Shown piece by piece: positions 6,932 to 64,000 of a stretch of 64,000 bases of DNA (its first letter is position 1; each line of letters opens with the position of its first letter). This DNA is from an uncultured Candidatus Saccharibacteria bacterium (lineage in GTDB: Bacteria; Patescibacteriota; Minisyncoccia; Phycocordibacterales; CAYSCM01). The notes below the pieces were generated by a model, which saw nothing but the letters and a program-made list of their open reading frames with translations, was not told where the DNA came from and searched no databases. Made by a program: the position numbers and the translations under genes. The DNA lies in the NCBI GenBank assembly GCA_964429815.1, contig CAYSCM010000001.1, forward strand, positions 32,001 through 96,000, read 5' to 3'.

Positions 6932-7932
6932 AGCGTTGTGAGCACCCCGCGGATGAGCTTCCCTTCCTCGAGGTCTTTGAGGGCGGCTCCTATCTCGTCG
7001 AAGGAATACTCTTTCGTAAGTAACTTATCCAAGCACATGACCTTCGGGTTTTCAACGTATTCACGCGCGTAGCGAGGAATGTCGCGGTCGAGCTCGCTCT
7101 CTCCGCCCCAGGTGCCGTAAAGCTTTTTGCCCTTGATGAGCCCGAAAGGGTTGATCGATATGGTTTCCCCGGGCGCAAGGTTTCCTGCAATAACGACGGT
7201 CCCGGCGTCCTTGACCGCGCGGTAGGCGCTCTCCATGGCGCCCTTGTTTCCCGAACACTCGACGGCCACATCGAAATCCTTTCCCTGAAACTCTTCGGCA
7301 GAGATCGCTTCATCGACGCCGAGCTCCTTTTTCGCATGCGCGAGCTTCCACGGAACGACGTCGATCGCGGTAACGTGAGCACCCTTCATGACGGCTCGAA
7401 TGAGTGCACTCGCTCCGATCCCCCCGATGCCGAATATAACCACTCGTTTGCCGTTGAGGTCTCCTAGGCGGTCGATGATACCCATGCCGGTCGGCACCGC
7501 GCACCCAAGAAGTGCCGCAATCGCGGGCTCCACCCCTTTTGACACCTTGGTGACACGATTCTCTGAGACGACCGCAAGCTCGGTAAACGTCGCCACGGAG
7601 CCACCGTTTACCTTCCCTTCTTTGCTTTGATACGTCGGCACCGGAGCGGATATACCCTCTCCAAGGATCCAACTTGCAACCACATAATCTCCGCTCCTTA
7701 CTTTCTGCACGCCTTCTCCGGCCGCGACCACCTCCGCTGCGGCTTCATGTCCCAATAAGTGGGGAATATATTCCGCTCCTTTCCTGCCGCGGATTTCATT
7801 GAGTTGGCTGTGGCAAAGTCCTGTCGCTAGCACTTTAATAAGTACCTGCCCCTTTTGAAGGGAGGGAACCTCAAGCTCCTCGATGGAGAGCGGTCCACCG
7901 ACGACGCGGAGTACTGCAGCGCGCGTTTTCAT
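6928..7932 (-). CDS. zinc-type (MDR) alcohol dehydrogenase family oxidoreductase
   Basis: GLCHSQLNE, GHEAAAEVVAAGEGV and GIGGIGASAL motifs. Start MKTRAAVL at 7932 is preferred over the track start at 7998. Confidence 0.75.
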   Translation of the reverse strand: MKTRAAVLRVVGGPLSIEELEVPSLQKGQVLIKVLATGLCHSQLNEIRGRKGAEYIPHLLGHEAAAEVVAAGEGVQKVRSGDYVVASWILGEGISAPVPTYQSKEGKVNGGSVATFTELAVVSENRVTKVSKGVEPAIAALLGCAVPTGMGIIDRLGDLNGKRVVIFGIGGIGASALIRAVMKGAHVTAIDVVPWKLAHAKKELGVDEAISAEEFQGKDFDVAVECSGNKGAMESAYRAVKDAGTVVIAGNLAPGETISINPFGLIKGKKLYGTWGGESELDRDIPRYAREYVENPKVMCLDKLLTKEYSFDEIGAALKDLEEGKLIRGVLTTL

Positions 7933-7933
7933 G

Positions 7934-8587
7934 CTAGGGGATAAACCAGTAGTAGTCACCCGTGTAGCCGACCTCGGCGAAGAGTTTTTTCCAATCATCG
8001 ACAGATAGGATGGTCTTTGCAGTAAGATTCCACTTCATCATGCGATCCTTCTCTTCTTCATGGTGGTAGGCGTCGACGGTAATGAACGAGTGTTTTCCTT
8101 TCACACGCTCAATCTCTCGAAGAGCCTCTTTACACTCAGGCAGTGGTAGGTTGTGAATGGTGTTAATCGAAATCACGAGATCGTAGGATTTATCCGCAAA
8201 TTGACTAAGATTTCTTGCATCTCCAACCGATACTGCGCCCGCAATTGAGGGCATGGCATTTTCGATAGCGTAGGAGGAAACATCAATACCGCGAACCACC
8301 ATGTGGGGAAGCCAATAGAGAAAATCATTAAGCATAAATCCCTTAGCACACCCGACATCAAGTACCGAAGAGTTGTTGTTGAGTCCGTAGTAATTTATGA
8401 AATCCCGAACCACCGGTACCCACCTCCCATCATAGCGGAAGCCGCCGTAGCCCTGATCCCTGGTGCCATCAAAAAACTCCCTGCCAAACTTTCGGGCAGT
8501 AGCAACATCCTCAGGAGACTTTTGTCCTCGAGCTTCAATGTTGCGTTTGGCTTTTGGATATTTCGAAAGAAGATCGATTTCTGCCAT
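7934..8587 (-). CDS. class I SAM-dependent methyltransferase
   Basis: VLDVGCAKGFMLNDF motif I. Confidence 0.7.
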   Translation of the reverse strand: MAEIDLLSKYPKAKRNIEARGQKSPEDVATARKFGREFFDGTRDQGYGGFRYDGRWVPVVRDFINYYGLNNNSSVLDVGCAKGFMLNDFLYWLPHMVVRGIDVSSYAIENAMPSIAGAVSVGDARNLSQFADKSYDLVISINTIHNLPLPECKEALREIERVKGKHSFITVDAYHHEEEKDRMMKWNLTAKTILSVDDWKKLFAEVGYTGDYYWFIP

Positions 8588-8596
8588 AGTGGTTGG

Positions 8597-10366
8597 TTAT
8601 TTTTTTTCGGGAAGAAGCTTAACCATCATGTTGTCATTGAACTCTTTTCTTGCAAGTAGCGGCTCGGGATCCTCGAGCGGCCGACCGAACTTTACCTGCG
8701 GGATTACGCGGTGCTTCGGGTTAATCTCGATGTTACAAAACACAGGCCCCCTCATCGCGAGCACCTTCTTAACTCCCCCGCTCAACTCGCGGTTCTTCTT
8801 GATCGTAATGGTTTTGAAGCCAAAGGAGGAAGCAATTTTGGCAAAGTCTGGGAACGCAAGTCCTCCCCCTTCCGAAGACGCAAGATACGCCGAATTAAAC
8901 CACTGATCTTGAGTCTGCTGTATCATACTGTAGCCGTGGTTATTCAATACAAAAATCTTGATCGGAAGTTTGTGCTTGAGAAGGGTACTTAACTCTTGCA
9001 AATTCATTTGGAGTGAACCATCTCCGGTTACACAAATAATTGATTTCTTGTTAAGCGCCAGGCTTACCCCAATGCTCGCCGGCAAAGCCCACCCCATCGC
9101 GGTGTTGTTCCAATCGTGGTAAAGACGCTGACCTTTCTTGAAGGAAAATCCCTGCATCATCCATGCGACCGTGCAGCCGGTATCAATGACCATTACTTCG
9201 TTCTGACGCGTGTAGCGAGAGAGCTCCTCAACAAATACATACGGATTGACCCCTTTCTCTTTGTAGTACGCGGGTGGGCACATGGGATATTTTTTCTTCC
9301 ATGCGGCAATACGTCTAAGCCAGGGTGAGATGTCGTTTTTTGGCAAACGTGCGGCGTGCTTTTGAAATGCCTTCAGCAGCTCTTTTGCGTCACCGGAGAT
9401 ACGCACATCGACTTTCAGGCCAAATTTTTTAAACTTCTTAAGTTCGTAGGGGTCAATATCGATGACTATCTTTTTTGCCTCTCGCGCAAACGTGTTGGGA
9501 GGACTACCCGTCGATTTGGTATCAAGACGGCTTCCGATTGAGAGGATCATGTCAGCGTTCTGGACGGCAAAATTGGCAAACCGCGTGCCGTGAGTGCCAA
9601 AGGTGCCGATGCGAAGTGGATGACTCTCTGGCAGGAGATCCCCTGCCCCCCATGTGAGTGCCGCAGGAAAGCCGAGTGTTTCCAAAAGTGAGATGGCCTC
9701 TTTTTCGGCCCCCGCGAGGTGGATTCCCCACCCAAACACAACGACGGGGCGCTTCGCCTGCCGTAGATAGTTTATGCTTCGAGCTACATCAACCGGCGCT
9801 TTCTTCTTCTCGACGGAGGGTGTAAACGAGGGAAGCTCTCCTGGATTAATTTCTCTGCGCTGAATGTCGTCGGGAATATCGAGCACTACGGGTCCTGGCC
9901 TACCACTTCGCGCCAGAAAGATCGCTTTCTCAAGCTCGTAGCGTATGCGCCTCTCATCGGTGATGAGTATCGCGTACTTAGTGATAGGACGATACATTTC
10001 GACCGTTGCCGTTTCTTGAAAACCCACTTGCCGCACGTTGGTATGACCTTTCATCCTAAAGGTGGCTACTTGGCCGGTAATAAATATGACGGGTACCGAA
10101 TCGTAGTAGGCGGAGCACACTCCCGTGATCATGTTCGTAGCACCTGGCCCTGAGGTGGACATCGCTACACCGAGGCCACCCGTGGCCCTCGCGTACCCGT
10201 CGGCAGCCATTGCCCCCGCTTGCTCGTGTCCTGGACAGATGACCTCCATTCCCCCCGTGCGCGCCACCGAATGAATAAGGTGAAGGGATGCTCCGCCGGA
10301 GATGGCAAAGACATGCTTCACCCCTTCTTTGCGGAGAACCTGTGCTACGTAGTCGGTGAGCTTCAT
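8597..10366 (-). CDS. thiamine-diphosphate enzyme of the acetolactate-synthase large-subunit family
   Basis: 589 aa with three-domain ALS architecture: N-terminal GVKHVFAISGGASL and C-terminal GDGSLQMNLQELST ThDP motif. Confidence 0.8.
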   Translation of the reverse strand: MKLTDYVAQVLRKEGVKHVFAISGGASLHLIHSVARTGGMEVICPGHEQAGAMAADGYARATGGLGVAMSTSGPGATNMITGVCSAYYDSVPVIFITGQVATFRMKGHTNVRQVGFQETATVEMYRPITKYAILITDERRIRYELEKAIFLARSGRPGPVVLDIPDDIQRREINPGELPSFTPSVEKKKAPVDVARSINYLRQAKRPVVVFGWGIHLAGAEKEAISLLETLGFPAALTWGAGDLLPESHPLRIGTFGTHGTRFANFAVQNADMILSIGSRLDTKSTGSPPNTFAREAKKIVIDIDPYELKKFKKFGLKVDVRISGDAKELLKAFQKHAARLPKNDISPWLRRIAAWKKKYPMCPPAYYKEKGVNPYVFVEELSRYTRQNEVMVIDTGCTVAWMMQGFSFKKGQRLYHDWNNTAMGWALPASIGVSLALNKKSIICVTGDGSLQMNLQELSTLLKHKLPIKIFVLNNHGYSMIQQTQDQWFNSAYLASSEGGGLAFPDFAKIASSFGFKTITIKKNRELSGGVKKVLAMRGPVFCNIEINPKHRVIPQVKFGRPLEDPEPLLARKEFNDNMMVKLLPEKK

Positions 10367-50322: not shown

Positions 50323-50357
50323 GCGCAAAAAAGCCCCTTATAAGGGGCTTTTTTGCG
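50323..50357. terminator. strong bidirectional hairpin with A/T runs immediately after the 16S trailer stem
   Basis: CGCAAAAAAGCCCC ttataa GGGGCTTTTTTGCG. Confidence 0.6.
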
Positions 50358-50359
50358 TT

Positions 50360-50388
50360 GGTACCAGAGTCTCTTTTGTTCCGTTCAA
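50360..50388 (-). promoter_or_regulatory. 3' arm of the pre-16S processing stem (RNase III-type)
   Basis: Complementary to 51987-52015: 8 bp, a 2x2 internal loop, then 19 bp. Confidence 0.7.
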
Positions 50389-50516: not shown

Positions 50517-51981
<1,465 letters not shown>

Positions 51982-51986
51982 ATTCG

Positions 51987-52015
51987 TTGAACGGAACAAA
52001 AGAGAGGCTGGTACC
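51987..52015 (-). promoter_or_regulatory. 5' arm of the pre-16S processing stem
   Basis: GGTACCAGCCTCTCTTTTGTTCCGTTCAA on the minus strand, pairing with 50360-50388. Preceded in the leader by the SD-like AGAAGGAGGT. Confidence 0.7.
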
Positions 52016-52230
52016 TCCTTCTTGATTCCTTTTACCCGTCCGAGCCGCAAAGCGGTTAGGATTAGGGTTTTTTGATCAGACTACACCGCCCTGGTTGGCG
52101 GCTAATCTAGTTGAACAGATTTTGTCTGCTCGCACATAACGTTCTTTGATTATCAATGATCACTACCTCATTGGCCGTTCGCCTCAAGCGGATTAGGCCG
52201 AAACAAAAACCTGCCCAAGGCAGTGCAGAC

Positions 52231-52258
52231 AGTATACGCAGAATTTGATGGGTGTCAA
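52231..52258 (-). promoter_or_regulatory. candidate 16S promoter
   Basis: Minus-strand TTGACA (52258-52253), 16-nt spacer, TATACT (52236-52231). About 250 nt upstream of the 16S 5' end. Confidence 0.5.
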
Positions 52259-52386
52259 ATGAAGGTCGCTCGCACACATCTTTTTGGAAACACGCATAAA
52301 ATAGGGCTTATTTTTGCTCCGCTCGCGCCGTCGCTCTGTGCGAGGTTTCCAAAAAGAGAATGCTCGCTCAAACAGGAAATGTAAAA

Positions 52387-52989
52387 TCAGATTGCGCCAC
52401 TCTGTGGAGGTTTTTTATTGAGATGTTGCCCAAAGAACGCCAGAGCTGTGATCGTTGTGTTGGCAAAAATCAAATAAATCGGATAAATCAGGTTAGCAAT
52501 ATCGAATTTTGTAGTCGAGACGGCAGCTAGAATTGCAGCGACGGCAATCATTGCCCACCCGAGAACGTTTTCTGAATAGGGCTCTCGATATGTCTTGGCT
52601 ATTGTCGGAATAGTCGAAATCAGGTCAGCCAGTACCGCTAGAATGAGCGCTACGAGAGGTTGTTTTGTAATTTGCCACAAACCTATAGCGATTATTGCTA
52701 GAGCAAAACAAGTATAATCAAGTGCCCCGTATTTTCTGTACCCATAACCAGACAAAGCAACAACAAGAATAAGCGCAGTGTTAAAAGTTGTTGTTATCAA
52801 GATTATGATGGACCACGATGCGCCGGCACTGAACTGAGCGGCTATGGCAATAATTTGTAGCGTGGTCCAAAGAACAAATGAAATTATATTTGGCCGAGTC
52901 GTACCCTTTATCATGCTTCTGACATAGGGGAAAACAGAGGCAATCTGGATTATTCCAGCAATAATTCCAACTACCGCATGCCAATCCAT
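52387..52989 (-). CDS. polytopic integral membrane protein (hypothetical; faint PQ-loop-like flavour)
   Basis: 200 aa from MDWHAVVGIIAGIIQIASVF, hydrophobic throughout. The track's N-terminal extension overlaps secF and is rejected. Confidence 0.5.
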   Translation of the reverse strand: MDWHAVVGIIAGIIQIASVFPYVRSMIKGTTRPNIISFVLWTTLQIIAIAAQFSAGASWSIIILITTTFNTALILVVALSGYGYRKYGALDYTCFALAIIAIGLWQITKQPLVALILAVLADLISTIPTIAKTYREPYSENVLGWAMIAVAAILAAVSTTKFDIANLIYPIYLIFANTTITALAFFGQHLNKKPPQSGAI

Positions 52990-52990
52990 C

Positions 52991-53893
52991 TTATTTCTTC
53001 TGCCAGCGCTCGATGGTGACGAGAAGTGGCGAGCCGAGGAAAATTGAGGAGTAGGTACCAGCGGCAATACCAATGAGAAGGGCAAGGGCGAAATTTTTGG
53101 TCGCCTCCGCGCCGAAAAAGTAAAGCGCGAGGAGCGAGAGGAGCACGGAGAGCGAGGTGTTGATCGAGCGATTAAAGGTCTGCGCAATACTCTTCCCAAC
53201 CGTAGTCCCAAACTCTTCCCGAATTCCCTGCTGGTGATTCACGCGGAGATTTTCACGCACGCGGTCGAAGACGACGATGGTATCGTGGACCGAAAAACCG
53301 AGCACCACGAGAAGCGCAGTGACAAAGAGCGTATCCACCTCAAACCCGGCATAGTGTCCGAGTATCGCAAATACCCCCGTTGGAATGATGACGTTATGGA
53401 TAAGCCCCACAATGGCGACCAATCCATACTTCCACGATGAAACAGGCTGCGACACCTTGCGAAACGCGAACGCGATGAAGAGGAGGATGGCCACGATGAC
53501 GAGCGCGACCGCGATCGTCGACTTGGTGCGAAGTTCCGAGCCGATCGTGGGGCCGATAGAGTTGTGCTGCTCACTCGTGATCTTCGCCGTCCCCCCGAGA
53601 GAAAGGGCGTTGAGAACTGCCACACGCTCTGGCTCTTGGAGATCTCGCGAACGAAGGATGTAACCATCGACTCCTGTGGGGCGCAGCGAGTAGGTTCCGA
53701 GCGTGAGAGTATTTAATTTACCCTCAGCCGCGGTTTTATCGGGCACTTGTCCCGCGTAGTGGACCTCTGTGAGAGCCCCGCCGGTAAAATCAATGCCGAG
53801 CTGAAGTCCAAAGAAAACAATCGCAAGGAGAGAGAGCCCCACCAGGACGGCGGAGAGGGCGTAGAAGAGTTTTCGATAAGTGATGACGAACAT
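52991..53893 (-). CDS. secF: protein translocase subunit SecF
   Basis: LGIDFTGGALTEV and the C-terminal RND-like TM bundle. Confidence 0.85.
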   Translation of the reverse strand: MFVITYRKLFYALSAVLVGLSLLAIVFFGLQLGIDFTGGALTEVHYAGQVPDKTAAEGKLNTLTLGTYSLRPTGVDGYILRSRDLQEPERVAVLNALSLGGTAKITSEQHNSIGPTIGSELRTKSTIAVALVIVAILLFIAFAFRKVSQPVSSWKYGLVAIVGLIHNVIIPTGVFAILGHYAGFEVDTLFVTALLVVLGFSVHDTIVVFDRVRENLRVNHQQGIREEFGTTVGKSIAQTFNRSINTSLSVLLSLLALYFFGAEATKNFALALLIGIAAGTYSSIFLGSPLLVTIERWQKK

Positions 53894-53895
53894 AG

Positions 53896-55281
53896 CTAGA
53901 ATTTGAACCCGTTACCAAAGAGTGCTCGCACTGCGCCCTTGTTTTCCCGGTGAAGAAGGCCGAGCGCATAAAGGAAGGTACGGCTTATAGAGACCGCGGT
54001 AAACATCGAGACGAGGACCCCGACCCCGAAGACAAGCGCAAAACCTTTAATAACCGCTGTGCCGCCAAGCCAGTAGAGGATAAAGGCGGTAATGATGGAA
54101 GAAATATTTGAGTCGCGGATTGAAGGCCACGCACGCGCAAAGCCTTCACGGATGGCTTCACCGAGCTTGTGTCCACGATTGAGCTCCTCTTTCATACGCT
54201 CGAATATGAGAATGTTCGCGTCAACCGCCATACCGACAGAGAGAATGAATCCTGCGATGCCGGCCGCAGTGAGCGTCACCGGGATGATCTTAAAGAGCGC
54301 GAGCATCATGACGACGTACATTCCGAGCGCCAGAATAGAGATGAGGCCGGGGAGGCGGTACCACAGGAGCATGAAGAGGGCGACGGCAAGGAAGCCGAGT
54401 TCGCCCGCATAGACACTCTTAGCTGCTGCCGCTTCTCCGAGCGAGGCACCGATCGTTTGAGTCCCGATAAGGGAAATGGGTACAGGGAGCGCGCCGAAAT
54501 TGAGGCTCTGCACAAGATCGCGCGCCTCGGTCGGCGTAAAGTTCCCGGAAATCGTCGCTTTACCACCAGTGATGGCCTCGCGGATGACTGGGGTCGATAT
54601 CGGTACGCCGTCGAGGAAAATGCCCAGTACGCCGCCTACATGCTCGCGCGTAATCTTTTCAAAAAGCGCCGAACCTTCCGCATTGAATTCGATCGACACG
54701 ATCGGTTGATTAATGTTCGCGCCACCCTGCCCTGTCCCGAAATTGAGCGTTGCGCGGGAGAAGAGGCGCCCGGTGAGGCCGGTGTCCGTGAAGGCCGAGT
54801 TGACGTCGAAAGTTTTGGCCTCTGAGGAGCCCGGCTCCGGTATCTTCGCGTCCGGCTTCATGAGCTTGAACTCAAGGAGAGGCGTCTTGCCGATGGCGAA
54901 AATCGCGGCGTTTACGTCCGTGACGCCAGGAAGCTCGACGATGAGGCGGTTCTCGGAGACGCCGGAGAGCGCGCTTGCGCGCTCCACCTGCACGAGAGGC
55001 TCCGAGACACCGAAAGCATTTACACGGCTCTCAATGACGGTGCGCAGCACTTCCATCGATGGTCCAATGTCGCCGGAAGCAACCTTTTTGGTGTCGGCTT
55101 TGTAGACGAGATGCGACCCGCCCGAGAGGTCGAGGCCGAGCTTAAAGGCGAAGCGCCCCGGGGAAAGCTGGGAGTGATAGACGAAGTAGCCGACCGCAAT
55201 CCCTGCGATGAGTATTAAAATGGCACTGACGCGCTGCCATACCATGGGGGTGAGCTTAGCAGAAAACCCTACCGTATGCAC
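53896..55281 (-). CDS. secD: protein translocase subunit SecD
   Basis: LGLDLSGGSHLVYKAD and the C-terminal TM bundle. The start may instead be at 55245. Confidence 0.85.
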   Translation of the reverse strand: MHTVGFSAKLTPMVWQRVSAILILIAGIAVGYFVYHSQLSPGRFAFKLGLDLSGGSHLVYKADTKKVASGDIGPSMEVLRTVIESRVNAFGVSEPLVQVERASALSGVSENRLIVELPGVTDVNAAIFAIGKTPLLEFKLMKPDAKIPEPGSSEAKTFDVNSAFTDTGLTGRLFSRATLNFGTGQGGANINQPIVSIEFNAEGSALFEKITREHVGGVLGIFLDGVPISTPVIREAITGGKATISGNFTPTEARDLVQSLNFGALPVPISLIGTQTIGASLGEAAAAKSVYAGELGFLAVALFMLLWYRLPGLISILALGMYVVMMLALFKIIPVTLTAAGIAGFILSVGMAVDANILIFERMKEELNRGHKLGEAIREGFARAWPSIRDSNISSIITAFILYWLGGTAVIKGFALVFGVGVLVSMFTAVSISRTFLYALGLLHRENKGAVRALFGNGFKF

Positions 55282-55286
55282 TACTG

Positions 55287-56231
55287 CTACAGGAGCTCCT
55301 GGGTTTGTGTGAGACCTTCGATAAGCGTATGTCGAGGCACGTATCCGAGAATCTTTTTTGCCTTAGATATATCGGCAAAGCTGTGTGGGATATCTCCAGG
55401 GCGAGAGGGCGCAAAATGAGGCTCGATAGAGGTTCCAAGCACGGTGTTGATGGTCGCCACAAGTTCGCGAAGGTTCGTCCGCTCCAGCCCCCCCACATTG
55501 AAAACCTCGCCCGCGATACCCTCTTTCTCTGCCGCCAAGATATTTGCAGCCACGGCGTCGGAGACGTAGGTGAACGAGCGGGAAGCTGACCCATCGCCAT
55601 AAATAGTCGGCCGTTCCCCGGCCTTCATAAGTTTAATGAATTTGGGAATTACCGCGGAATACTCTGAATTCGGATCCTGCCGCGGCCCATAGATATTAAA
55701 ATAGCGTAGGGAGACAGTTTCGAGCCCGAAAAGCGAATAAAATTGTTTTGCGTACACCTCCCCGAGATATTTCTGCGCAGCATAGGGAGAAAGAGGATTG
55801 GGAGGCAAATCTTCGACCTGCGGTAGCACGGGCGTGTCGCCATAGTAGGAACTTGATGCGGCATACACCACTCGCTGGACGCCCGTGTCGCGGGCCGCGA
55901 GAAGTACCTGGAGCGTTCCCGTCGCATTCGCCTCATGCGAGGTAAGCGGGTCCCGTACGCTCTTGGGAACGGACGGTACCGCTGCCTGGTGGAACACAAC
56001 ATTAGCGCCCGAGAAAACGCGGGCGAGAGCGCCGAGGTCGAGAATGCTCGCCGGTATGAATTCGATACGGTCGGCAACACCTTTAAGATTTTCTGCACTA
56101 CCTGTTGATACGTCATCGACCACTCTGACGGTATACCCGCGCAACAGAAGCTCTTCAACGAGATGCGAACCAATGAATCCCGCACCTCCTGTTACCACAG
56201 CTCTTTTCATGGTAGGTGTAACGACCTTCAT
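55287..56231 (-). CDS. NAD-dependent epimerase/dehydratase (UDP-hexose 4-epimerase-like)
   Basis: VVTGGAGFIGSHLVEELL and YAAQK motifs. Confidence 0.8.
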   Translation of the reverse strand: MKVVTPTMKRAVVTGGAGFIGSHLVEELLLRGYTVRVVDDVSTGSAENLKGVADRIEFIPASILDLGALARVFSGANVVFHQAAVPSVPKSVRDPLTSHEANATGTLQVLLAARDTGVQRVVYAASSSYYGDTPVLPQVEDLPPNPLSPYAAQKYLGEVYAKQFYSLFGLETVSLRYFNIYGPRQDPNSEYSAVIPKFIKLMKAGERPTIYGDGSASRSFTYVSDAVAANILAAEKEGIAGEVFNVGGLERTNLRELVATINTVLGTSIEPHFAPSRPGDIPHSFADISKAKKILGYVPRHTLIEGLTQTQELL

Positions 56232-56236
56232 GCGGC

Positions 56237-57586
56237 CTACGTTCCACTTCTCGAGAGAAGTGCGCGTACGGTCTTAAGGGCAATGTGGAAATCAAGCACG
56301 AGTGAGCGGTGTTTTACGTAGTACAAGTCGTAGGAGAGTTTCCGCGCTGTTTTTTCAACGTCAACGACACCCCGGGGGGCATCGTAGTCATTGATCTGTG
56401 CCCAGCCGGAGAGACCTGGCTTCACCAGGTGTCGGGCGTTGTAGAGAGGTAATTCTTTTTCGTAGGCCCTAACCAACGTGGGGATCTCCGGACGAGGCCC
56501 GATGAGAGAGAGCTCACCCCGTAAGACATTCAAGAGCTGGGGAAACTCGTCGATACGTGATTTGCGCAGTACTTTTCCCGCCTCCGTGATACGGTTTTTC
56601 TTGTGAAGCTCAGGATCGCCGTGATCATCAAAGAGCCAAGAGCGGAATTTCATGAGCTCAAAAGAGCGGTTATTCTGTCCGACCCTCTCCTGAGATATAA
56701 AAAGCGGCCCCGAGGAAGTTACTCTCAGTGCGATCGCGCCTCCAAAGCAAAATGGGAGCGCGATGACACCCGCAATGAGTGCCACCACGATGTCCATCGC
56801 ACGCTTGAGCGCGTCATACGCACTATGCCGATCGCGAATTTCTTCAGTGAGAAGCTTGGTTTCGTCGATGAGTGTAAGCGGCACACGCTGAAAGAGGTCC
56901 TCAAAGAGCGTCGCAGTATCGATAAAACGCGTACCCTCGAACACTAACGCGGAAAAATCGCGCGCGTACGGGGAAAGTTTCTCGTGGTGCGCATCGAATA
57001 CAATGACCCGAGGCCTTTCTTGGCGCGCACGCGCGAGAATTTTTTTTGCATCGAAGGCGCTCGCGGAGATTTTGTCTTTAAGGATGATGCCGTGTCGTGG
57101 ATTATGTGTGAGCTCATGCGCTATCGCATCTATCTCCTTTCCCTCCCCAATGAGATACGCTGTCACAGGTACCCGAGGTCGAAGCTTCGGGACAATGAGA
57201 AGTCGCCAGAAAAGAATACTCCCCACAGATACACCGAGGTAGATGAGAAGTGTCGTCTTCGGAGCAATACCAAACCAAGGAGCAAAGAAAAAGAACAAGG
57301 CGGCAATGATGACATTCGCGACTTGGGCCTGGACAATCGCTAGCGGCATGCGCTCAACCACCGCGAGAGTGCGACGCTCGTAGAGCTCAAGAATGAAAAA
57401 AACCCCTATCCAAACGAGAAAGAGGAACGAAAACGGCACAAGATGTTGCAGGAAAACGGCTCCGGTCGGAAACGAAAAGGTCCTCAAATAGAGGGATAGC
57501 CATAGGGACGCGACAAAACAAAAAACGTCTCCGAGGAGGAGCACGAAGGTGCCGGTGTGCCGAAGCCGCATGGTCACACCATACAA
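56237..57586 (-). CDS. polyprenyl-phosphate sugar-phosphate transferase (WbaP/exopolysaccharide priming transferase family)
   Basis: N-terminal TM helices and the C-terminal bacterial sugar transferase domain (KFRSW...DEFPQLLNVLRGELSLIGPRP). Confidence 0.8.
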   Translation of the reverse strand: MYGVTMRLRHTGTFVLLLGDVFCFVASLWLSLYLRTFSFPTGAVFLQHLVPFSFLFLVWIGVFFILELYERRTLAVVERMPLAIVQAQVANVIIAALFFFFAPWFGIAPKTTLLIYLGVSVGSILFWRLLIVPKLRPRVPVTAYLIGEGKEIDAIAHELTHNPRHGIILKDKISASAFDAKKILARARQERPRVIVFDAHHEKLSPYARDFSALVFEGTRFIDTATLFEDLFQRVPLTLIDETKLLTEEIRDRHSAYDALKRAMDIVVALIAGVIALPFCFGGAIALRVTSSGPLFISQERVGQNNRSFELMKFRSWLFDDHGDPELHKKNRITEAGKVLRKSRIDEFPQLLNVLRGELSLIGPRPEIPTLVRAYEKELPLYNARHLVKPGLSGWAQINDYDAPRGVVDVEKTARKLSYDLYYVKHRSLVLDFHIALKTVRALLSRSGT

Positions 57587-57649
57587 CGATTTAGCTCTTA
57601 CACAAGTTACCTATGTGGAGCGCTACCTCGTGGTAGCCTTTTATAAACT

Positions 57650-58762
57650 ATGAAGGTTCTCTATGTCATCACAAAAGGTAATTTTGGAGGCGCCCAGCGC
57701 TACGTGTTTGAGTTGGCGGTTGAAGCAAAACGTCGAGGGCATGATGTGACTGTCGTTTACGGGGAGCCCGGCGTATTGATCAAGAAGCTAGCAGGGGCCT
57801 ACATACGGACAATTTCCCTTTCTACTCTTCAGAGAAACATCAATCCCCTCAAAGAGATCGGGAGTTTCATTCGCCTTGTGTCCCTCATACATTCATTACA
57901 TCCTGATGTGGTCCATCTCAATAGCGCCAAAGCCGGAGGACTCGGCGCCCTCGCCGCTCGCGTGATGGCAGTACCACGAATTGTTTTCACTGTTCATGGC
58001 TGGCCCTTTAACGAAGAACGGCTATGGGTTGACAACATGGTCCGGGCTTTGTTGCAGTGGCTTACGGTGATGCTAACGCATGTAAGCATTGTCGTTGCAG
58101 AGAGCGACAAAAAGCAGGTCGCTCACTGGCCCTTTGTGCAGAAGAAAATAGTGTGCATTCATAATGGCGTTGGCACCATAGATTTTCTTGAAAGGAGCAC
58201 CTCGCGCGCAAACCTTTTATCTACGCACGTCGAGAAATTCTGGATCGGAGCACATACCGAAAACAAAAATAAGGGCATCGACTTTCTTTTGAAAGCCTAT
58301 GCGCGCGCCCGGGAAAAACTTTCTTCCGCGATCATCGTACTTTTCGGCACAGGGCCGGAAGAGTCCAATCTTAAACGCCTCACACGGGAGTTAGGGATCG
58401 AGGATAAGGTTTTTTTTCTTGGATTTTTAGATAATGCACGAGCGTACCTTAAAGCTTTCGATGTTTACACCATTCCCTCCCGTAAAGAAGGATTGCCGTA
58501 TTCACTCCTCGAGGCCGGCGCGGCGGGACTCCCGGTCGTTGCGAGCCGGGTGGGAGGCATCCCCGAAGCAGTAACCGACACGCAAAGTGGTTTTCTCACA
58601 GCCCCTGGCGATGTAGTACTTCTTTCAGCCAGGCTCGCAGAGCTCATAGAAAGCGAACCGCTGCGCGAAAAATTTGGACAGGCCTTGCGAGCGAAAGTTG
58701 AAAAAGAATTCTCTCTTTCTCACGTGTTTGAAAAAACATTTGCTCTCTACTCACACCCCTAG
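57650..58762 (+). CDS. GT4-family glycosyltransferase
   Basis: KEGLPYSLLEAGAAGLPVVASRVGG. Confidence 0.8.
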   Translation: MKVLYVITKGNFGGAQRYVFELAVEAKRRGHDVTVVYGEPGVLIKKLAGAYIRTISLSTLQRNINPLKEIGSFIRLVSLIHSLHPDVVHLNSAKAGGLGALAARVMAVPRIVFTVHGWPFNEERLWVDNMVRALLQWLTVMLTHVSIVVAESDKKQVAHWPFVQKKIVCIHNGVGTIDFLERSTSRANLLSTHVEKFWIGAHTENKNKGIDFLLKAYARAREKLSSAIIVLFGTGPEESNLKRLTRELGIEDKVFFLGFLDNARAYLKAFDVYTIPSRKEGLPYSLLEAGAAGLPVVASRVGGIPEAVTDTQSGFLTAPGDVVLLSARLAELIESEPLREKFGQALRAKVEKEFSLSHVFEKTFALYSHP

Positions 58763-59902
58763 AAACTCTTTCCCGATATCGTCGCGGTGGAAGGCCCTGC
58801 TGTAGGCTCGCTGTCCCATCAAAATGCCGAGCCCCATATACTCGGTGAGGAGGTGTGAGCCGCCGTAGCTCATGAAGGGAATGGTGATGCCGGTCACCGG
58901 CAAGAGCCCGATGTTGAAACCGATGTGAATGATGAGGTGACTCAAGAAGTACACCGCAAGGCCAGCTGCAAATAAGGTCTCAAAATTACTCTCCCCGTGC
59001 ATAGCGGTCGCGATGATACGCCACAAAATAATCCCGTAGAGGATAAAGAGCAGAAGAACGCCAACAAATCCCCACTCTTCGGCGAACGCTGCGAAGATAA
59101 AGTCCGTTTGATACTCAGGGAGAAACTGCAGCCGGCTCTGGGTTCCGTAACCAACCCCCTTCCCCACAAGCCGTCCCGAGCCGACCGCGATCGTGGACTG
59201 GTAGGCATTGTAGCCGGCGCCGCGAATGTCGGTGAGGGGGTGAATGAACGTGAGGACGCGCTGCTTCTGGTATGGCCGGAGTGCAAAGAGCCACATGCCC
59301 GCCGCTATCACGGCCGCGACCAGAAAGACCGTGAGAAGATGACGAAGCGATATCCCCGCAACGAGGACCATCCCGAGCCATATGGTGCCGATGATGATGG
59401 CCGAACCGAGATCAGGCTGGAGAAAGATGAGGACGAAAGGAACGAGCGTATACGCGCCAGAGAGGAGGATGTGCCGGATGTGTGCTATTTCCACATGCCG
59501 ACGCGAAAAATACTTGGCGAGGACTATGATGAGCACGAGCTTCATCGGGTCGGCGGGTTGCAGCGCGAATGAACCGAAGTTGAAGCGAGCCTGAGCGCCC
59601 TTAGCGATGGAGCCGAACACGAAAATGAGGAAGAGCAGCGCGATGGCCGCGACGTAGAGCGACGCGATAACGGAGGTGCGCCGCAGGAAGTGATAGTCGA
59701 AGAGTGCGAAAATGAAAAAGCTCGCAAGCGCGAGCGCTATCCAGACAAGCTGTTTGTTGAAGAAGTAATTCTCCGCCCCGAAGGAATTCATCGTAAAGAG
59801 GCCTGCCGCGAGGATGGGGAGCGTCGAGAGGAGGAGCACCCAGTCGATACTCTGCCGTATGTTCGTGAAAAAACGGCGTCCTCGGGCGATGGTAGCGGCC
59901 AT
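58751..59902 (-). CDS. rodA: FtsW/RodA/SpoVE-family peptidoglycan glycosyltransferase
   Basis: QSTIAVGSGRLVGKG...LPEYQTDFIFAAFAEEWGF. Start MAATIARG at 59902, just after the upstream stop. Confidence 0.8.
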   Translation of the reverse strand: MAATIARGRRFFTNIRQSIDWVLLLSTLPILAAGLFTMNSFGAENYFFNKQLVWIALALASFFIFALFDYHFLRRTSVIASLYVAAIALLFLIFVFGSIAKGAQARFNFGSFALQPADPMKLVLIIVLAKYFSRRHVEIAHIRHILLSGAYTLVPFVLIFLQPDLGSAIIIGTIWLGMVLVAGISLRHLLTVFLVAAVIAAGMWLFALRPYQKQRVLTFIHPLTDIRGAGYNAYQSTIAVGSGRLVGKGVGYGTQSRLQFLPEYQTDFIFAAFAEEWGFVGVLLLFILYGIILWRIIATAMHGESNFETLFAAGLAVYFLSHLIIHIGFNIGLLPVTGITIPFMSYGGSHLLTEYMGLGILMGQRAYSRAFHRDDIGKEFLGV

Positions 59903-59904
59903 GA

Positions 59905-60666
59905 TCAGAGAGGCCTGACCCGGACCTTCACATCGACCGTAGTCGAGGTCGCTGTAAACGGACGAGGCCACGTGAAGGTGAGCGTGTTACTCCCCTGCGC
60001 AGGGAGCTCTCTCACGACCGTGCGGGACGCCGCCATTGCATTGCCGTTTTCGTTGAAGATAACCGCGGTCGCCTCGATGCTTTGTATCGGCCGAAGTGAG
60101 GTGTTGCTGATGGTCACCGTGAGCTTGGGAGAGGCGCCCGCCTCGGAAAGTCCTCGCTCCCCTATCAAAATACTTTTAGCAGGATCGTCGGCTAGGGTGA
60201 AATTTTGTACGGGCGAAAATTCGAAGAAGGTGCGCGAGGGGGTTCGATTCCCCGTCGTTATGCCCGGTTCAACGATGACGTTAACCTGGCCTGGCGAGAG
60301 GAATGTGGTCCCCTTACGCTCCACGACGAGGATGTTTCCCTCATCGTAGAGCTTGAAATCGTAGGGAAAGGAGAGAACAGCACCGCTCTCATTGGGATTG
60401 TTGACGTAGGCGATCGCCGTCCACACCCCCGGCGTTACCTCGACGGAGCGTGCCCACATGACCGTGGCTGGGGATGTTTTGAAGGGGCAGATTTTCTTGC
60501 AAGCGCCACCGCAGTCAATTCCCTCTTCCCTGCCATCTTGTCTGCCGTCGGAGCAGGTCGGCGCCGTGGAGAGGAGTGAGTACGCGATACCCCCAAAAAG
60601 AAGCAGAAGAACGAGTAGTATGCCGCTTACGTAGAGGCCCTTGCGGCGATTAGCCCAGGCTGACAT
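59905..60666 (-). CDS. membrane-anchored extracytoplasmic protein (hypothetical)
   Basis: Start MSAWANRRKG at 60666, one N-terminal TM helix and a Cys-rich segment CSDGRQDGREEGIDCGGACKKIC. The track start at 60699 lies inside the terminator. Confidence 0.55.
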   Translation of the reverse strand: MSAWANRRKGLYVSGILLVLLLLFGGIAYSLLSTAPTCSDGRQDGREEGIDCGGACKKICPFKTSPATVMWARSVEVTPGVWTAIAYVNNPNESGAVLSFPYDFKLYDEGNILVVERKGTTFLSPGQVNVIVEPGITTGNRTPSRTFFEFSPVQNFTLADDPAKSILIGERGLSEAGASPKLTVTISNTSLRPIQSIEATAVIFNENGNAMAASRTVVRELPAQGSNTLTFTWPRPFTATSTTVDVKVRVRPL

Positions 60667-60684
60667 GGGAAGAATAGTAACACG

Positions 60685-60715
60685 AAAAAAACACCTCACT
60701 TTGAGGTGTTTTTTT
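60685..60715. terminator. terminator of the 23S-5S unit (bidirectional hairpin)
   Basis: AAAAAAACACCTCA ctt TGAGGTGTTTTTTT. Confidence 0.7.
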
Positions 60716-60730
60716 GACTTTTAAATCCCC

Positions 60731-60840
60731 TAACCTGGCGGCTACCTACTCTCCCCTTGCGAGTACCTAGCGGCGTAGCGGGCTGAAAGCGAGGGTTCGC
60801 AGCTTTCAGAGCCGCAGGCCTGTTCGAGGCCGAGGCGGGG
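60731..60840 (-). pseudogene. 5S rRNA-like element lacking the 5' ~25 nt and carrying an extra internal hairpin
   Basis: 37 nt identical to the 5S 3' end (60731-60767 equals 60914-60950). It then diverges but stays alignable (GCCCGCTACGCCGCTAGGTAC versus GCCCGCTAGCGCCGATGGTAC). Inserted hairpin CTGAAAGC...GCTTTCAG. Confidence 0.5.
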
Positions 60841-60875
60841 TCACGCATAAAATGCAGCAGCATTTTATGCGTGAC
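60840..60875. repeat. perfect 16-bp palindromic hairpin
   Basis: GTCACGCATAAAATGC agca GCATTTTATGCGTGAC. Confidence 0.85.
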
Positions 60876-60914
60876 TAACGGCATGTCCCGTCCAAAATGT
60901 TAGTTAGAAACTAT

Positions 60915-61022
60915 AACCTGGCGGCTACCTACTCTCCCCTTGCGAGTACCATCGGCGCTAGCGGGCTTAACGGCCGTGTTCGGAATGAGAACGGGTGTTT
61001 CCCCGCCGCCAAACCACCAGAT
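60915..61022 (-). rRNA. rrf: 5S rRNA
   Basis: Minus strand: CTGGTGGTTTGGCGGCGGGGAAACACCCGTTCTCATTCCGAACACGGCCGTTAAGCCCGCTAGCGCCGATGGTACTCGCAAGGGGAGAGTAGGTAGCCGCCAGGTT. Helix I closes with G-U pairs. Flanked by the 12-bp inverted repeat 60889-60900 / 61057-61068. Confidence 0.85.
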
Positions 61023-61073
61023 TATAAATTCCAACTATTTTCGATCTCTAAGTGTGACATTTTGGACGGATTC

Positions 61074-61119
61074 TCGGAATGAGAACGGGTGTTTCCCCGC
61101 CGCCAAACCACCAGATTAT
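61074..61119 (-). repeat. orphan duplicate of the 5S 5' half
   Basis: 46-nt perfect direct repeat of 60980-61025. Confidence 0.85.
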
Positions 61120-62388
61120 GAGATTCAAAAAGTCGGGTTCGGCAGCCGACTTCCTCGATAGGATGAGGAAGATCGGCTGCCGCCCGCGCAAGGACGTGAG
61201 CAGTTGAGCGGGGCGCTCCTCCCGAGCGGCCACCATTCCCATCGCAGTGCTAAAGCGCTTCTTAGAATGGTCGCGGAGGGCGACACCATTCCAGCTCCGC
61301 AAAGGGTCCGTGCACGCTTCTTTCCCACGTCCGAAAAGCGAAAACAAAGAACTTAACGTTTCGAAGCGTCCGAAATCCGGGTAGATTTCGGCCACCAGTA
61401 AAACGTCAAGCGGGTTAAAAAAGTAACGAAAATCATATTCAATCAATTGCGACATGCAGATTCCCTGACAGGAAACTCGACGTATTAGTACGCCTCGGCT
61501 CAATCCGTTGCCGGACTTCCACCTGGCGCCTATCAACGTAATAGTCTCTTACGGGTCTCAACGAGTCCTCATCTCAGAGTTGGCTTCTTGCTTAGATGCT
61601 TTCAGCAATTATCCATGCCGAACTTAGCTACGCAGCGTGCTTCTGGCGAAACAGCTGCCACACCAGAGGTTCGTCCATTCCGGTCCTCTCGTACTAGGAA
61701 CAGATCTCTTCAAGACTCAACGCCCATGGTAGATAGGAGACCAACCTGTCTCACGACGGTTTGAACCCAGCTCGCGTATCTTTTTAATTGGCGAACAGCC
61801 AAACCCTTGGGACCTTCTCCAGCCCCAGGATAAGATGAGCCGACATCGAGGTGCCGAACGGTACCGTCGCTATGGACGCTTGGGTACCACTAGCCTGTTA
61901 TCCCCAGAGTAGCTTTTGTCCGATAATCTTCCCCCGCATCTAATGCGTAAGGTCGGTTCACTTTGCTCCGCTTTCGCGCCTGCTCGGCATGTACGCCTTA
62001 CAGTCAAGCTCCCTTTTGCCAATACACTATCGGCACGGTTTCCATTCGCGCCTAGGGAACCTTAATAGACTCCTCCGTTACTCTTTAGGAGGATAGCGCC
62101 CCACTAAAACTGCCTGCCATGCAGTGTCCCTCATCGTTTTTGCCGACGAGGTTAGAGACTATATGTTGTCAGGATGGTATTTCACTGGCGAGTCCACACT
62201 CCCCGGAAGGAATGCTTCAACCTCTCCCATCTATGCTGCGCAGAAAAAACATAGCCCCACTACAAAGCTACAGTAAAGCTTCTGGGGTCTTTTCGTCTAA
62301 CCACGGGTAACCGGCATCTTCACCGGTATTGTATTTTCACCAGGCTGATCCTCGAGACAGTCCCCCAGTCGTTACACCATTCGTGCAC

Positions 62389-62428
<40 letters not shown>

Positions 62429-63158
62429 GATTATAGTTATCGCCGACATTCACCAGGGCTTGCATAGCCCAGCACTACACATAAATGCATAGCACCATCC
62501 ATGCTTGACCTTCTGGCATTGGTCAGGTGTCACCCCCTATACATCCTCTTACGAGTTCGCAGGGAGCTGTGTTTTTGGTAAACAGTCGCCAGGAGTACTT
62601 TCGCTGCGGCCCCGCCGACTTGCGTCGAAAGGGCAGGCCTTATTGCTAACGTACGGCCGCTTTTTTGCCGAGTTCCTTGAGGATCAATCACCTGTTCGCC
62701 TTGGTCTACTCGACCTGACCACCTGTGTCGGATTACGGTACGGTCTCGTGTTTGTTATGCTTAGAGATTTTTCTTGGAAGCGTGCTCCCATGCGTAAATC
62801 CTCCGTAGAGGATCTCCCCGTGATGCTCGGACTTGCGACTCCCGGATTTTCCTAGAAGTCATCCTCACACCCCAGACACCAATCCAATAAGATGCGCATA
62901 GTACAACCCTTCGTCCTCTCATCGCACAAACACAAGGTCATGGAATATTAACCATGCATCCATTAGGTACGGCTTTCGCCATCCCCTTAGGACCGACTAA
63001 CCCTTGGCTGATCTTCATCGCCAAGGAAACCTTGGTCTTTCGGCGTGGGGGAGTCTCACCCCCATTGTGGTTACTCGTGCCGGCATTCTCACTTCGCAAC
63101 GCTCCACGCTCAGTTACCCTCGCGCTTCATGGCGGATGCGAACGCTCTCCTACCGCGT

Positions 63159-63336
63159 TATGTGTTTCGTTGAGGAGCCGAGGATGGCTCCTCGGCTATT
63201 AGTCTTCTTCGTCGTTATAGATGAACGGTATAGGTCCAAACATTGACCAGACCGCGACCGCAATGACGTAGATTGCAAACCAGTCGTCTTCCAACATGGC
63301 TTCACCTCTTTTGTACTTTCCTCAACGAAACACACA
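63159..63336 (-). other. intervening sequence (IVS) replacing 23S helix 45
   Basis: The E. coli hairpin GCAGCGACGCTTATGCGTTGTTG is replaced by about 175 nt. The insert is closed by a 16+2 bp stem (63159-63176 / 63319-63336) between CCGAAACTGAGGG and GGTAGGAGAGCGTTC. Confidence 0.7.
63199..63297 (-). CDS. candidate 32-codon mini-ORF inside the 23S IVS
   Basis: Own translation: MLEDDWFAIYVIAVAVWSMFGPIPFIYNDEED. SD GAGGTG lies 5 nt upstream. Stop TAA is followed by the 9-bp hairpin 63176-63197. Confidence 0.3.
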   Translation of the reverse strand: MLEDDWFAIYVIAVAVWSMFGPIPFIYNDEED

Positions 63337-63417
63337 ACACCCTCAGTTTCGGTACAACGCTTAAGCCCCGATTATTTCCGGCGCAAGATCTCTCGATGAG
63401 TGAGCTGTTACGCTTTC

Positions 63418-63449
<32 letters not shown>

Positions 63450-64000
63450 TCATTGTCAGAGAAATTTCACCTCCTTAAGATGCACTGAGCGTTGATTTTG
63501 GGACCTTAACTTGAGATCTAGGCTCTTCCCTTTTTGACCACCGGAGCTTAGCCCCCGGAGTCTAACTGCGTGGTAGTGGAGAACGGTATTTGGAGTTTGA
63601 TAGGATTGACGAGCTTTCGCCCTATTCAATCCTTCCAGTGCTCTACCCCCGTTCTATAAACCACACGCCAGCCCAAAAGCTGTTTCGGAGAGAACCAGCT
63701 ATTACCAGGTTCGATAAGCTTTTCACTCCAACCCACAAGTCATCCGAATGCGTTGAACGACATACCGGTTCGGGCCTCCCCACTCCTTTCGGAGTGGTTC
63801 ACCCTGCTCATGGGTAGCTCACCTGGCTTCGGGTCGTATACGCGCTACTTAGTCGCGCTATTCACACTCGCTTTCGCTACGGCTTCGTCCGACAAAGGAC
63901 TTAGCCTCGCAACGCGCATACACTCGCCGGCTCATTCTTCAATAGGCACGCGGTCACCCGGAAGGATAGAAGCACCCAAGACTAGCCGATGGGTCGTTGC

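Follow-up and report, generated by a model that had tools for sequence, protein, structure and literature searches.

The window analyzed here, a stretch of 64,000 nucleotides, carries rRNA genes that are unlinked and arranged in an unusual order on the minus strand (50519-64000), with the 23S and 5S genes followed by about 9 kb of protein genes (RodA, glycosyltransferases, an epimerase and SecD/SecF) and then by the 16S gene; tRNA-Ile(GAT) and tRNA-Leu(CAG) are found about 1.9 kb past the latter. The same unlinked order is kept in a relative whose RodA is 77% identical (L005, 4857-21149). The rRNA features of the window are:

61464-64000, minus strand: 23S rRNA gene (Rfam LSU_rRNA_bacteria, 2011 bits, model positions 552-2925)
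63950-63979 (approximate), minus strand: helix 25 of the 23S rRNA, an ordinary hairpin of ~30 nt without an insert (first block of the Rfam alignment)
63155-63340, minus strand: expanded helix 45 of the 23S rRNA (Rfam alignment, and blast and pairwise alignment with the relative L005)
60916-61021, minus strand: 5S rRNA gene (Rfam)
50519-51980, minus strand: complete 16S rRNA gene (Rfam)

The host can be placed through the RodA protein (58751-59971; FtsW/RodA), whose gene adjoins the rRNA genes and which has thousands of homologues. The source genome's own RodA (P0001) is 100% identical, the next best matches are 62-82% identical, and the identical protein is encoded on an NCBI contig of 501,704 bp. 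Contigs of the organism are also present in the sequencing runs SRR12313479 and SRR12313482. Homologues that come with a source name are from Candidatus Kaiserbacteria, Paceibacterota, Parcubacteria and Patescibacteria, and these names therefore identify the host as a CPR bacterium, which the first-pass annotation had not recognized; taken together with the unlinked rRNA genes and the intron-rich relatives, they point to a Paceibacteria-like member of the CPR/Patescibacteria. The gene order of this lineage (mechanosensitive channel, 23S, 5S, an ORF of ~250 aa, RodA, glycosyltransferases, SecDF and 16S) is conserved, so that helix 45 can be read in the relatives as well.

The 5′ end of the 23S gene is missing, as the gene runs off the window at model position 552. 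Helix 25, the other classical site of intervening sequences (IVSs), is nonetheless inside the window and unexpanded; the first-pass annotation of this DNA had put it at or beyond the window edge. In the Rfam alignment of 62600-64000 to the LSU model, the helix-45 hairpin is entered directly 3′ of the conserved CCGAA-ACUGAGG motif and is followed by a long unaligned insertion, which occupies the apex of the hairpin (E. coli ~1164-1185). Helix 45 is thereby 186 nt long (63155-63340, minus strand), of which the outer ~7 bp represent the native helix-45 stem and the remainder the intervening sequence. The net insertion is ~158 nt relative to the relatives, and the extra length is ~158-164 nt over all comparisons. 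The first-pass annotation had described the helix-45 hairpin as replaced by an insert of about 175 nt and had proposed alignment to an LSU covariance model as a check; that alignment places the extra sequence in the helix-45 apex and not elsewhere, and the flanks it had named, ACCGAAACTGAGG at 63353-63341 and GGTAGGAGAGCGTTC at 63154-63140 in RNA sense, are correct. It also holds that no further large insertions lie 3′ of the IVS, since the distance from the insert to the 3′ end of the gene is 1691 nt against ~1695 model positions. The parts of the expanded helix and its flanks are, from 5′ to 3′ of the rRNA:

63341-63353, minus strand: conserved 5′ flank in the 23S, ACCGAAACUGAGG (identical in L005, L009, L011, L012, L015, L017 and L020)
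63319-63340, minus strand: 5′ arm of the closing stem, GUGUUGUGUGUUUCGUUGAGGA (MFE fold and inverted repeat I1)
63298-63318, minus strand: A-rich leader of 21 nt, AAGUACAAAAGAGGUGAAGCC (mostly unpaired in the MFE and centroid folds)
63199-63297, minus strand (rRNA sense): ORF of 32 codons plus stop, with the product MLEDDWFAIYVIAVAVWSMFGPIPFIYNDEED (listing of ATG ORFs)
63177-63196, minus strand: GC-rich 8-bp hairpin, GCCGAGGA-GCCA-UCCUCGGC (fold and inverted repeats I2 and I3)
63155-63176, minus strand: 3′ arm of the closing stem, UCCUCAACGAAACACAUAACGC (MFE fold, inverted repeat and self-match)
63140-63154, minus strand: conserved 3′ flank in the 23S, GGUAGGAGAGCGUUC (sequence and alignment with relatives)

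In RNA sense, these give the order ACCGAAACUGAGG / GUGUUGUGUGUUUCGUUGAGGA / AAGUACAAAAGAGGUGAAGCC / AUG and 32 codons / UAA UA / GCCGAGGAGCCAUCCUCGGC / UCCUCAACGAAACACAUAACGC / GGUAGGAGAGCGUUC; an example stretch of the IVS reads GTGTTTCGTTGAGGAAAGTACAAAAGAGGTGAAGCCATG.

The ViennaRNA MFE fold closes the insert with 22 uninterrupted base pairs (63319-63340 with 63155-63176), of which 16 (63319-63334 with 63161-63176) are perfect Watson-Crick pairs and two (63335·63160 and 63339·63156) are G·U wobbles, and the two arms are also recovered by an inverted-repeat finder (I1) and as a blastn self-match. The stem of 16 perfect pairs plus 2 bp reported in the first-pass annotation is thus real in its 16 perfect pairs and too short in its extent. 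Terminal inverted repeats that form a nearly perfect duplex of at least ~20 bp, as here, are characteristic of the IVS class. The IVS region folds with an MFE of -83.9 kcal/mol versus -59.3 +/- 4.1 kcal/mol for dinucleotide shuffles (z = -5.97), and none of the 200 shuffles is as stable. The duplex encloses a loop of 142 nt, whose interior of leader and ORF is structured at the level of the shuffles (z = -0.89), which rules out a structured RNA in the loop; the structural signal resides in the closing stem and the small 3′ hairpin alone. This GC-rich hairpin begins 2 nt past the stop codon of the ORF and abuts the 3′ arm of the closing stem, and an alternative 8-bp pairing (GAGGAGCC/GGCUCCUC) is available.

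Searches with Rfam found no family in the insert at the gathering threshold, nothing credible at E<=10 and no group I or II intron, and neither the 32-aa ORF nor a 61-aa alternative frame had a Pfam match, even at E<=10. A group I/II intron or a homing-endonuclease element is rejected on account of this lack of Rfam and Pfam signal and of the small size of the insert, and an IVS of the S23p type (23S_rRNA_IVP, a four-helix bundle) is rejected on account of loop ORFs that match no Pfam family.

An insert in a 23S gene could also result from a chimeric join that brought foreign sequence into a metagenome-assembled genome. The source is probably metagenome-derived, and no independent contig across the junctions was obtained when the peptide and three spurious ORFs that overlap the 23S/IVS were looked up by exact match. 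Against such an artefact, the insert sits exactly at the helix apex, and its two ends pair with each other over 22 bp so as to prolong the native helix in register, an arrangement that would not arise from a random misjoin. Further, the flanking 23S is colinear with the relatives on both sides (94% and 91% identity to L005 on either side of the insert), and two NCBI contigs are on record with this 32-aa product. We accordingly regard a misassembly as a highly improbable source of the insert.

For the distribution of the insert, we sampled seven distinct lineages of relatives, of which five were located through conserved synteny and two through the 23S flank, with the distance from ACCGAA to GGTAGG as the yardstick for helix-45 length. 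This distance is 193 nt in the window, 35 nt in six of the lineages and 65 nt in one:

Lineage 1, L005 (its 23S is the same as in L006 and L010): 35 nt
Lineage 2, L009: 35 nt
Lineage 3, L011: 35 nt
Lineage 4, L012/L013: 35 nt
Lineage 5, L015/L016: 35 nt
Lineage 6, L017-L019 with L023/L024 (identical in the region): 35 nt
Lineage 7, L020-L022: 65 nt, with a helix 45 of 58 nt

Helix 45 itself thus measures 28 nt in six of the seven lineages and 58 nt in the seventh, against 186 nt in the window (one further contig, L008, stops just past the flank and gives no helix-45 length). The closest relative found on a long contig (L005/L006/L010, with the 77% identical RodA) shares the gene order of the window and has the 28-nt helix. 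The first-pass annotation had suggested a comparison of IVS presence and absence among relatives, and the long insert is absent from all seven lineages. A scan of genome contigs with the 5′ flank GGGGCTTAAGCGTTGTACCGAA recovered only two unrelated MAGs, one of Uhrbacteria and one delta-proteobacterial, in each of which helix 45 is normal. A scan of metagenome contigs with the lineage flank recovered four contigs, none of them from the source organism; helix 45 is normal in three, and the fourth ends just past the flank. Neither the window nor the loci L001-L011 hold a second copy of the IVS or the peptide, phages, plasmids and viral contigs (the latter by degenerate-pattern scans) gave nothing meaningful for either, and no sequence homologue of the insert was found. 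The long insert therefore appears, as far as these lineages tell, to be specific to that of the host, with the sporadic distribution across the seven relative lineages that is typical of IVSs.

A moderately extended helix 45 (58 versus 28 nt) with a longer hairpin is seen in L020/L021/L022 at 3809-3873, and helix 45 appears to be a recurrent site of length change in the host group, even in the absence of a full IVS. Other positions of the 23S vary as well: L005 displays two inserts with no counterpart in the window, of 218 nt (~6974-7191) and 420 nt (~7855-8274), which are situated near E. coli ~1925 and ~2590 and have no Rfam intron match at the gathering threshold. Three other relatives feature LAGLIDADG_1 ORFs within their 23S (L013, 4954-5433; L014, 1049-1528; L017/L018, 3568-4050). 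The set of rRNA insertions is thus likely to turn over quickly in the host lineage. The helix-45 insert is predicted to be a recent gain within one Paceibacteria-like lineage, whose relatives seem to carry introns at other 23S sites instead, and the host lineage most likely acquired the element recently, as a neutral or selfish insertion.

Insertions of at least 100 bp are found in 82% of CPR 23S genes (Tsurumaki et al. 2024, PMC11270868), and numerous non-intron inserts of less than 200 bp, located at the two classical IVS sites of the CPR 23S, have been read as RNase III-type IVSs (PMC11270868). The insert of the window agrees with this set in its CPR host, its length of 100-200 bp relative to E. 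coli, its classical IVS site and its lack of an intron or of a domain in its ORF. In particular, it resembles the CPR 23IS4 inserts (PMC11270868) in host, in type of site and in size below 200 bp, and likewise in the absence of a group I/II intron, a homing endonuclease or a Pfam-annotated ORF. Of the ORFs it extracted, that survey annotated those with known Pfam domains only, such that small orphan ORFs like the one in this insert were not assessed (PMC11270868). Group I introns with LAGLIDADG genes are also among the CPR 23S insertions, as are the LAGLIDADG ORFs in the 23S of the relatives L013 and L017; they differ from the host's insert in occupying other sites (around E. coli 1917-1952 and 2593-2657), in having a ribozyme core and in being religated, none of which applies to it.

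Outside the CPR, the best-characterized parallel is the helix-45 IVS of Coxiella burnetii, which is 428 nt long and is cut by RNase III in the middle of its 28-bp terminal stem, yielding 23S fragments of ~1.2 and ~1.7 kb and an excised RNA that is rapidly degraded (PMC4990558). Its ORF, S23p (~14 kDa, 23S_rRNA_IVP), is apparently not expressed (PMC4990558). The insert of the window shares with this IVS and with the S23p IVSs of Leptospira and Brucella the location at the helix-45 apex, the long stem of terminal repeats and an ORF in the loop, and its predicted fragments of ~1.2 and ~1.7 kb match those of Coxiella. It differs in the length of the expanded helix (186 nt here against the 428-nt IVS), in the stem (22 versus 28 bp) and in an ORF of 32 codons with no Pfam match in place of S23p; further, cleavage by RNase III is demonstrated in Coxiella (PMC4990558) and predicted here. 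The IVSs found in helix 45 of Salmonella, Yersinia, Proteus and Campylobacter (~90-150 nt; PMC2801512 and the references of PMC11270868) are alike in site, similar size, stem-loop form and sporadic presence among close relatives. Unlike the likenesses of form, there is no sequence similarity between these IVSs and the insert of the host. We know of no report of a coding-like ORF in the helix-45 IVSs of these four genera.

Taken together, the structural and phylogenetic evidence supports the insert as a putative classical-type IVS in the helix-45 apex. It is a known kind of element, in CPR too, and represents one further example without sequence relatives. The ~158 extra nucleotides extend helix 45 into the 22-bp duplex that closes the 142-nt loop, and we posit that in the pre-rRNA this duplex of two turns would serve as a substrate of the double-strand-specific RNase III, which would cut both strands of the stem and release the insert, leaving ends that are not religated. 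The mature 23S would then consist of a 5′ piece of ~1.2 kb or more and a 3′ piece of ~1.69 kb (63154 to 61464), which would stay together within the 50S subunit; helix 45 is on the surface of the subunit, and a break would hence be tolerated. The host also has a stem of the kind that RNase III processes around its 16S gene, 29 nt long and 93% complementary (50360-50388 with 51987-52015), the 3′ arm of which lies ~130 nt beyond the 16S end. It was detected by an inverted-repeat search, which was used in place of ViennaRNA duplexfold since the latter was uninformative on the 16S flanks, and may count as indirect support for RNase III processing in the host.

Alternatively, the extended helix 45 might stay in the mature 23S as a surface-exposed expansion segment, with the 23S unfragmented. 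The variation of helix-45 length in the lineage, mostly 28 nt and 58 nt in L020-L022, indicates that extra length is tolerated. The stem has only 22 bp, which puts it among the shortest that RNase III processes efficiently and counts against excision. A tblastn search with an approximate E. coli Rnc query found no RNase III gene in the 64-kb window, which covers ~13% of a contig of roughly at least 500 kb. Retention as a conserved structural feature is at odds with the absence of the insert from the closest relatives and with its want of a homologue, and an interior no more structured than shuffles (z = -0.89) is unlike that of a folded expansion segment. Inserts of the same architecture and site have been excised wherever tested (PMC4990558), and the CPR survey, in a passage that cites Brown et al., describes CPR rRNA inserts as removed from the transcripts (PMC11270868). 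We therefore hold a retained segment to be unlikely, and favor, as the reasonably probable outcome, an IVS in the helix-45 apex of the host's single 23S gene that is most likely excised by RNase III to give a fragmented 23S. The 23S of this organism would thus probably appear fragmented and be ~160 nt longer in the DNA, which matters for rRNA annotation, for the design of probes and primers and for RNA integrity scores.

The ORF, which had escaped the first-pass annotation, takes up 99 of the 142 loop nucleotides, and its product MLEDDWFAIYVIAVAVWSMFGPIPFIYNDEED has acidic ends, a hydrophobic core of 22 residues and no Lys or Arg; it is predicted to be a single transmembrane peptide with a protein-like composition. 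NCBI gene calls include this product on two contigs, the longest of 501,704 bp. Dinucleotide shuffles of the loop contain an ATG ORF of at least 32 codons in 4.7% of cases, such an ORF plus a strong Shine-Dalgarno (SD)-like motif in 0.6%, and one that is equally hydrophobic in 1 of 20,000, all of these ORF statistics being post hoc. By a codon and amino-acid composition score trained on 51 long ORFs of the window, the ORF read in frame reaches +12.0 bits, while its five other frames lie between -4.7 and -38.6. The score of host genes is 8.3 +/- 4.9 bits, and only 0.6% of open off-frame windows attain +12.0. The choice among synonymous codons carries no information, the host bias being too weak to lend it power. 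The loop ORF is more gene-like than chance, and a view of the insert purely as junk leaves that unexplained.

These features raise the alternative that the IVS carries a real micropeptide gene, for which the released RNA or the pre-rRNA would act as a mini-mRNA of a single-pass membrane peptide. The architecture of an A-rich leader, a 32-codon ORF and a 3′ hairpin is suggestive of this, with a leader that is mostly unpaired, like host gene starts, and a stable hairpin after the stop codon; so are the rarity of an ORF of this length and hydrophobicity among shuffles, the composition score that is high in the coding frame only, and the NCBI gene calls on two contigs. However, phmmer against 1.84 billion representatives returned only the peptide itself, in a set where any peptide 50-90% identical to it would fall into the same 50% cluster and so escape notice; at the 90% level, its cluster has no other member. 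A word-index search with a doubled 64-aa query gave no candidate, the peptide's own entry included, as the index apparently lacks proteins this short. The peptide is also absent from all relatives sampled, from the rest of the window and from phages, plasmids and viral contigs, and neither the conserved homologues nor the purifying selection that would mark a small membrane protein or type I toxin was found. Uninformative synonymous codons and post hoc statistics further weaken the case. Moreover, in the only studied IVS ORF, S23p of Coxiella, the protein was not expressed and the excised RNA was rapidly degraded (PMC4990558).

The leader features an SD-like GAGGUGA at 63302-63308, 4 nt before the AUG, which was considered as a sign of translation and rejected, as the 16S of the host has no anti-SD and its genes make no use of SD motifs. 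The 3′ tail of this 16S reads GGAUUAAUUCC where GGAUCACCUCC is expected (50519-50535, minus strand), and in the alignment it appears as GGAUUAAUUCCAAU versus the bacterial consensus GGAUCACCUCCUUU, with the anti-SD core CCUCC lost. SD-like motifs precede 9.6% of the gene starts of the window versus 8.1% of internal in-frame start codons, which served as the control, and this lack of enrichment agrees with a 16S devoid of an anti-SD. The GAGGUGA motif hence has no partner in the 16S, which tells against the micropeptide. On this evidence, a real micropeptide gene in the IVS is rather improbable, and we consider the loop ORF most likely to be no conserved functional gene, though its composition is protein-like. 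More specifically, a protein-coding gene nested in rRNA, from which RNase III would release a mini-mRNA for SD-independent translation from the A-rich leader into a 32-residue membrane peptide, strikes us as very doubtful. If true, it would couple production of the peptide to rRNA transcription in a minimal-genome CPR bacterium and, if translated, would constitute a rare case of a peptide gene expressed from inside an rRNA precursor.

Several further observations concern the rRNA genes around the IVS-bearing 23S. The 442-nt spacer between 23S and 5S (61022-61463) has no detectable tRNA and otherwise aligns poorly with that of L005, which features a tRNA-Ala(CGC) between 23S and 5S at 8728-8803. 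The 5S gene has a truncated copy of its 5′ part within this spacer, 94 nt upstream of the gene itself and recognizable as a 55-nt direct repeat with 93% identity (61074-61128 versus 60980-61034); L004, a Logan contig from this organism, stops near the 5S side of this repeat region. At the other end of the locus, the 16S gene is short (1462 nt versus a model of 1533 positions), and the tip of its helix 44 (50600-50640, minus strand) appears in the alignment as a truncation of the apical part of the penultimate helix. Directly after the 16S processing stem, there is a perfect palindromic terminator-like hairpin of 17+17 nt (CGCAAAAAAGCCCCTTA/TAAGGGGCTTTTTTGCG, 50324-50357), and given this hairpin the 16S appears to constitute a transcription unit of its own.
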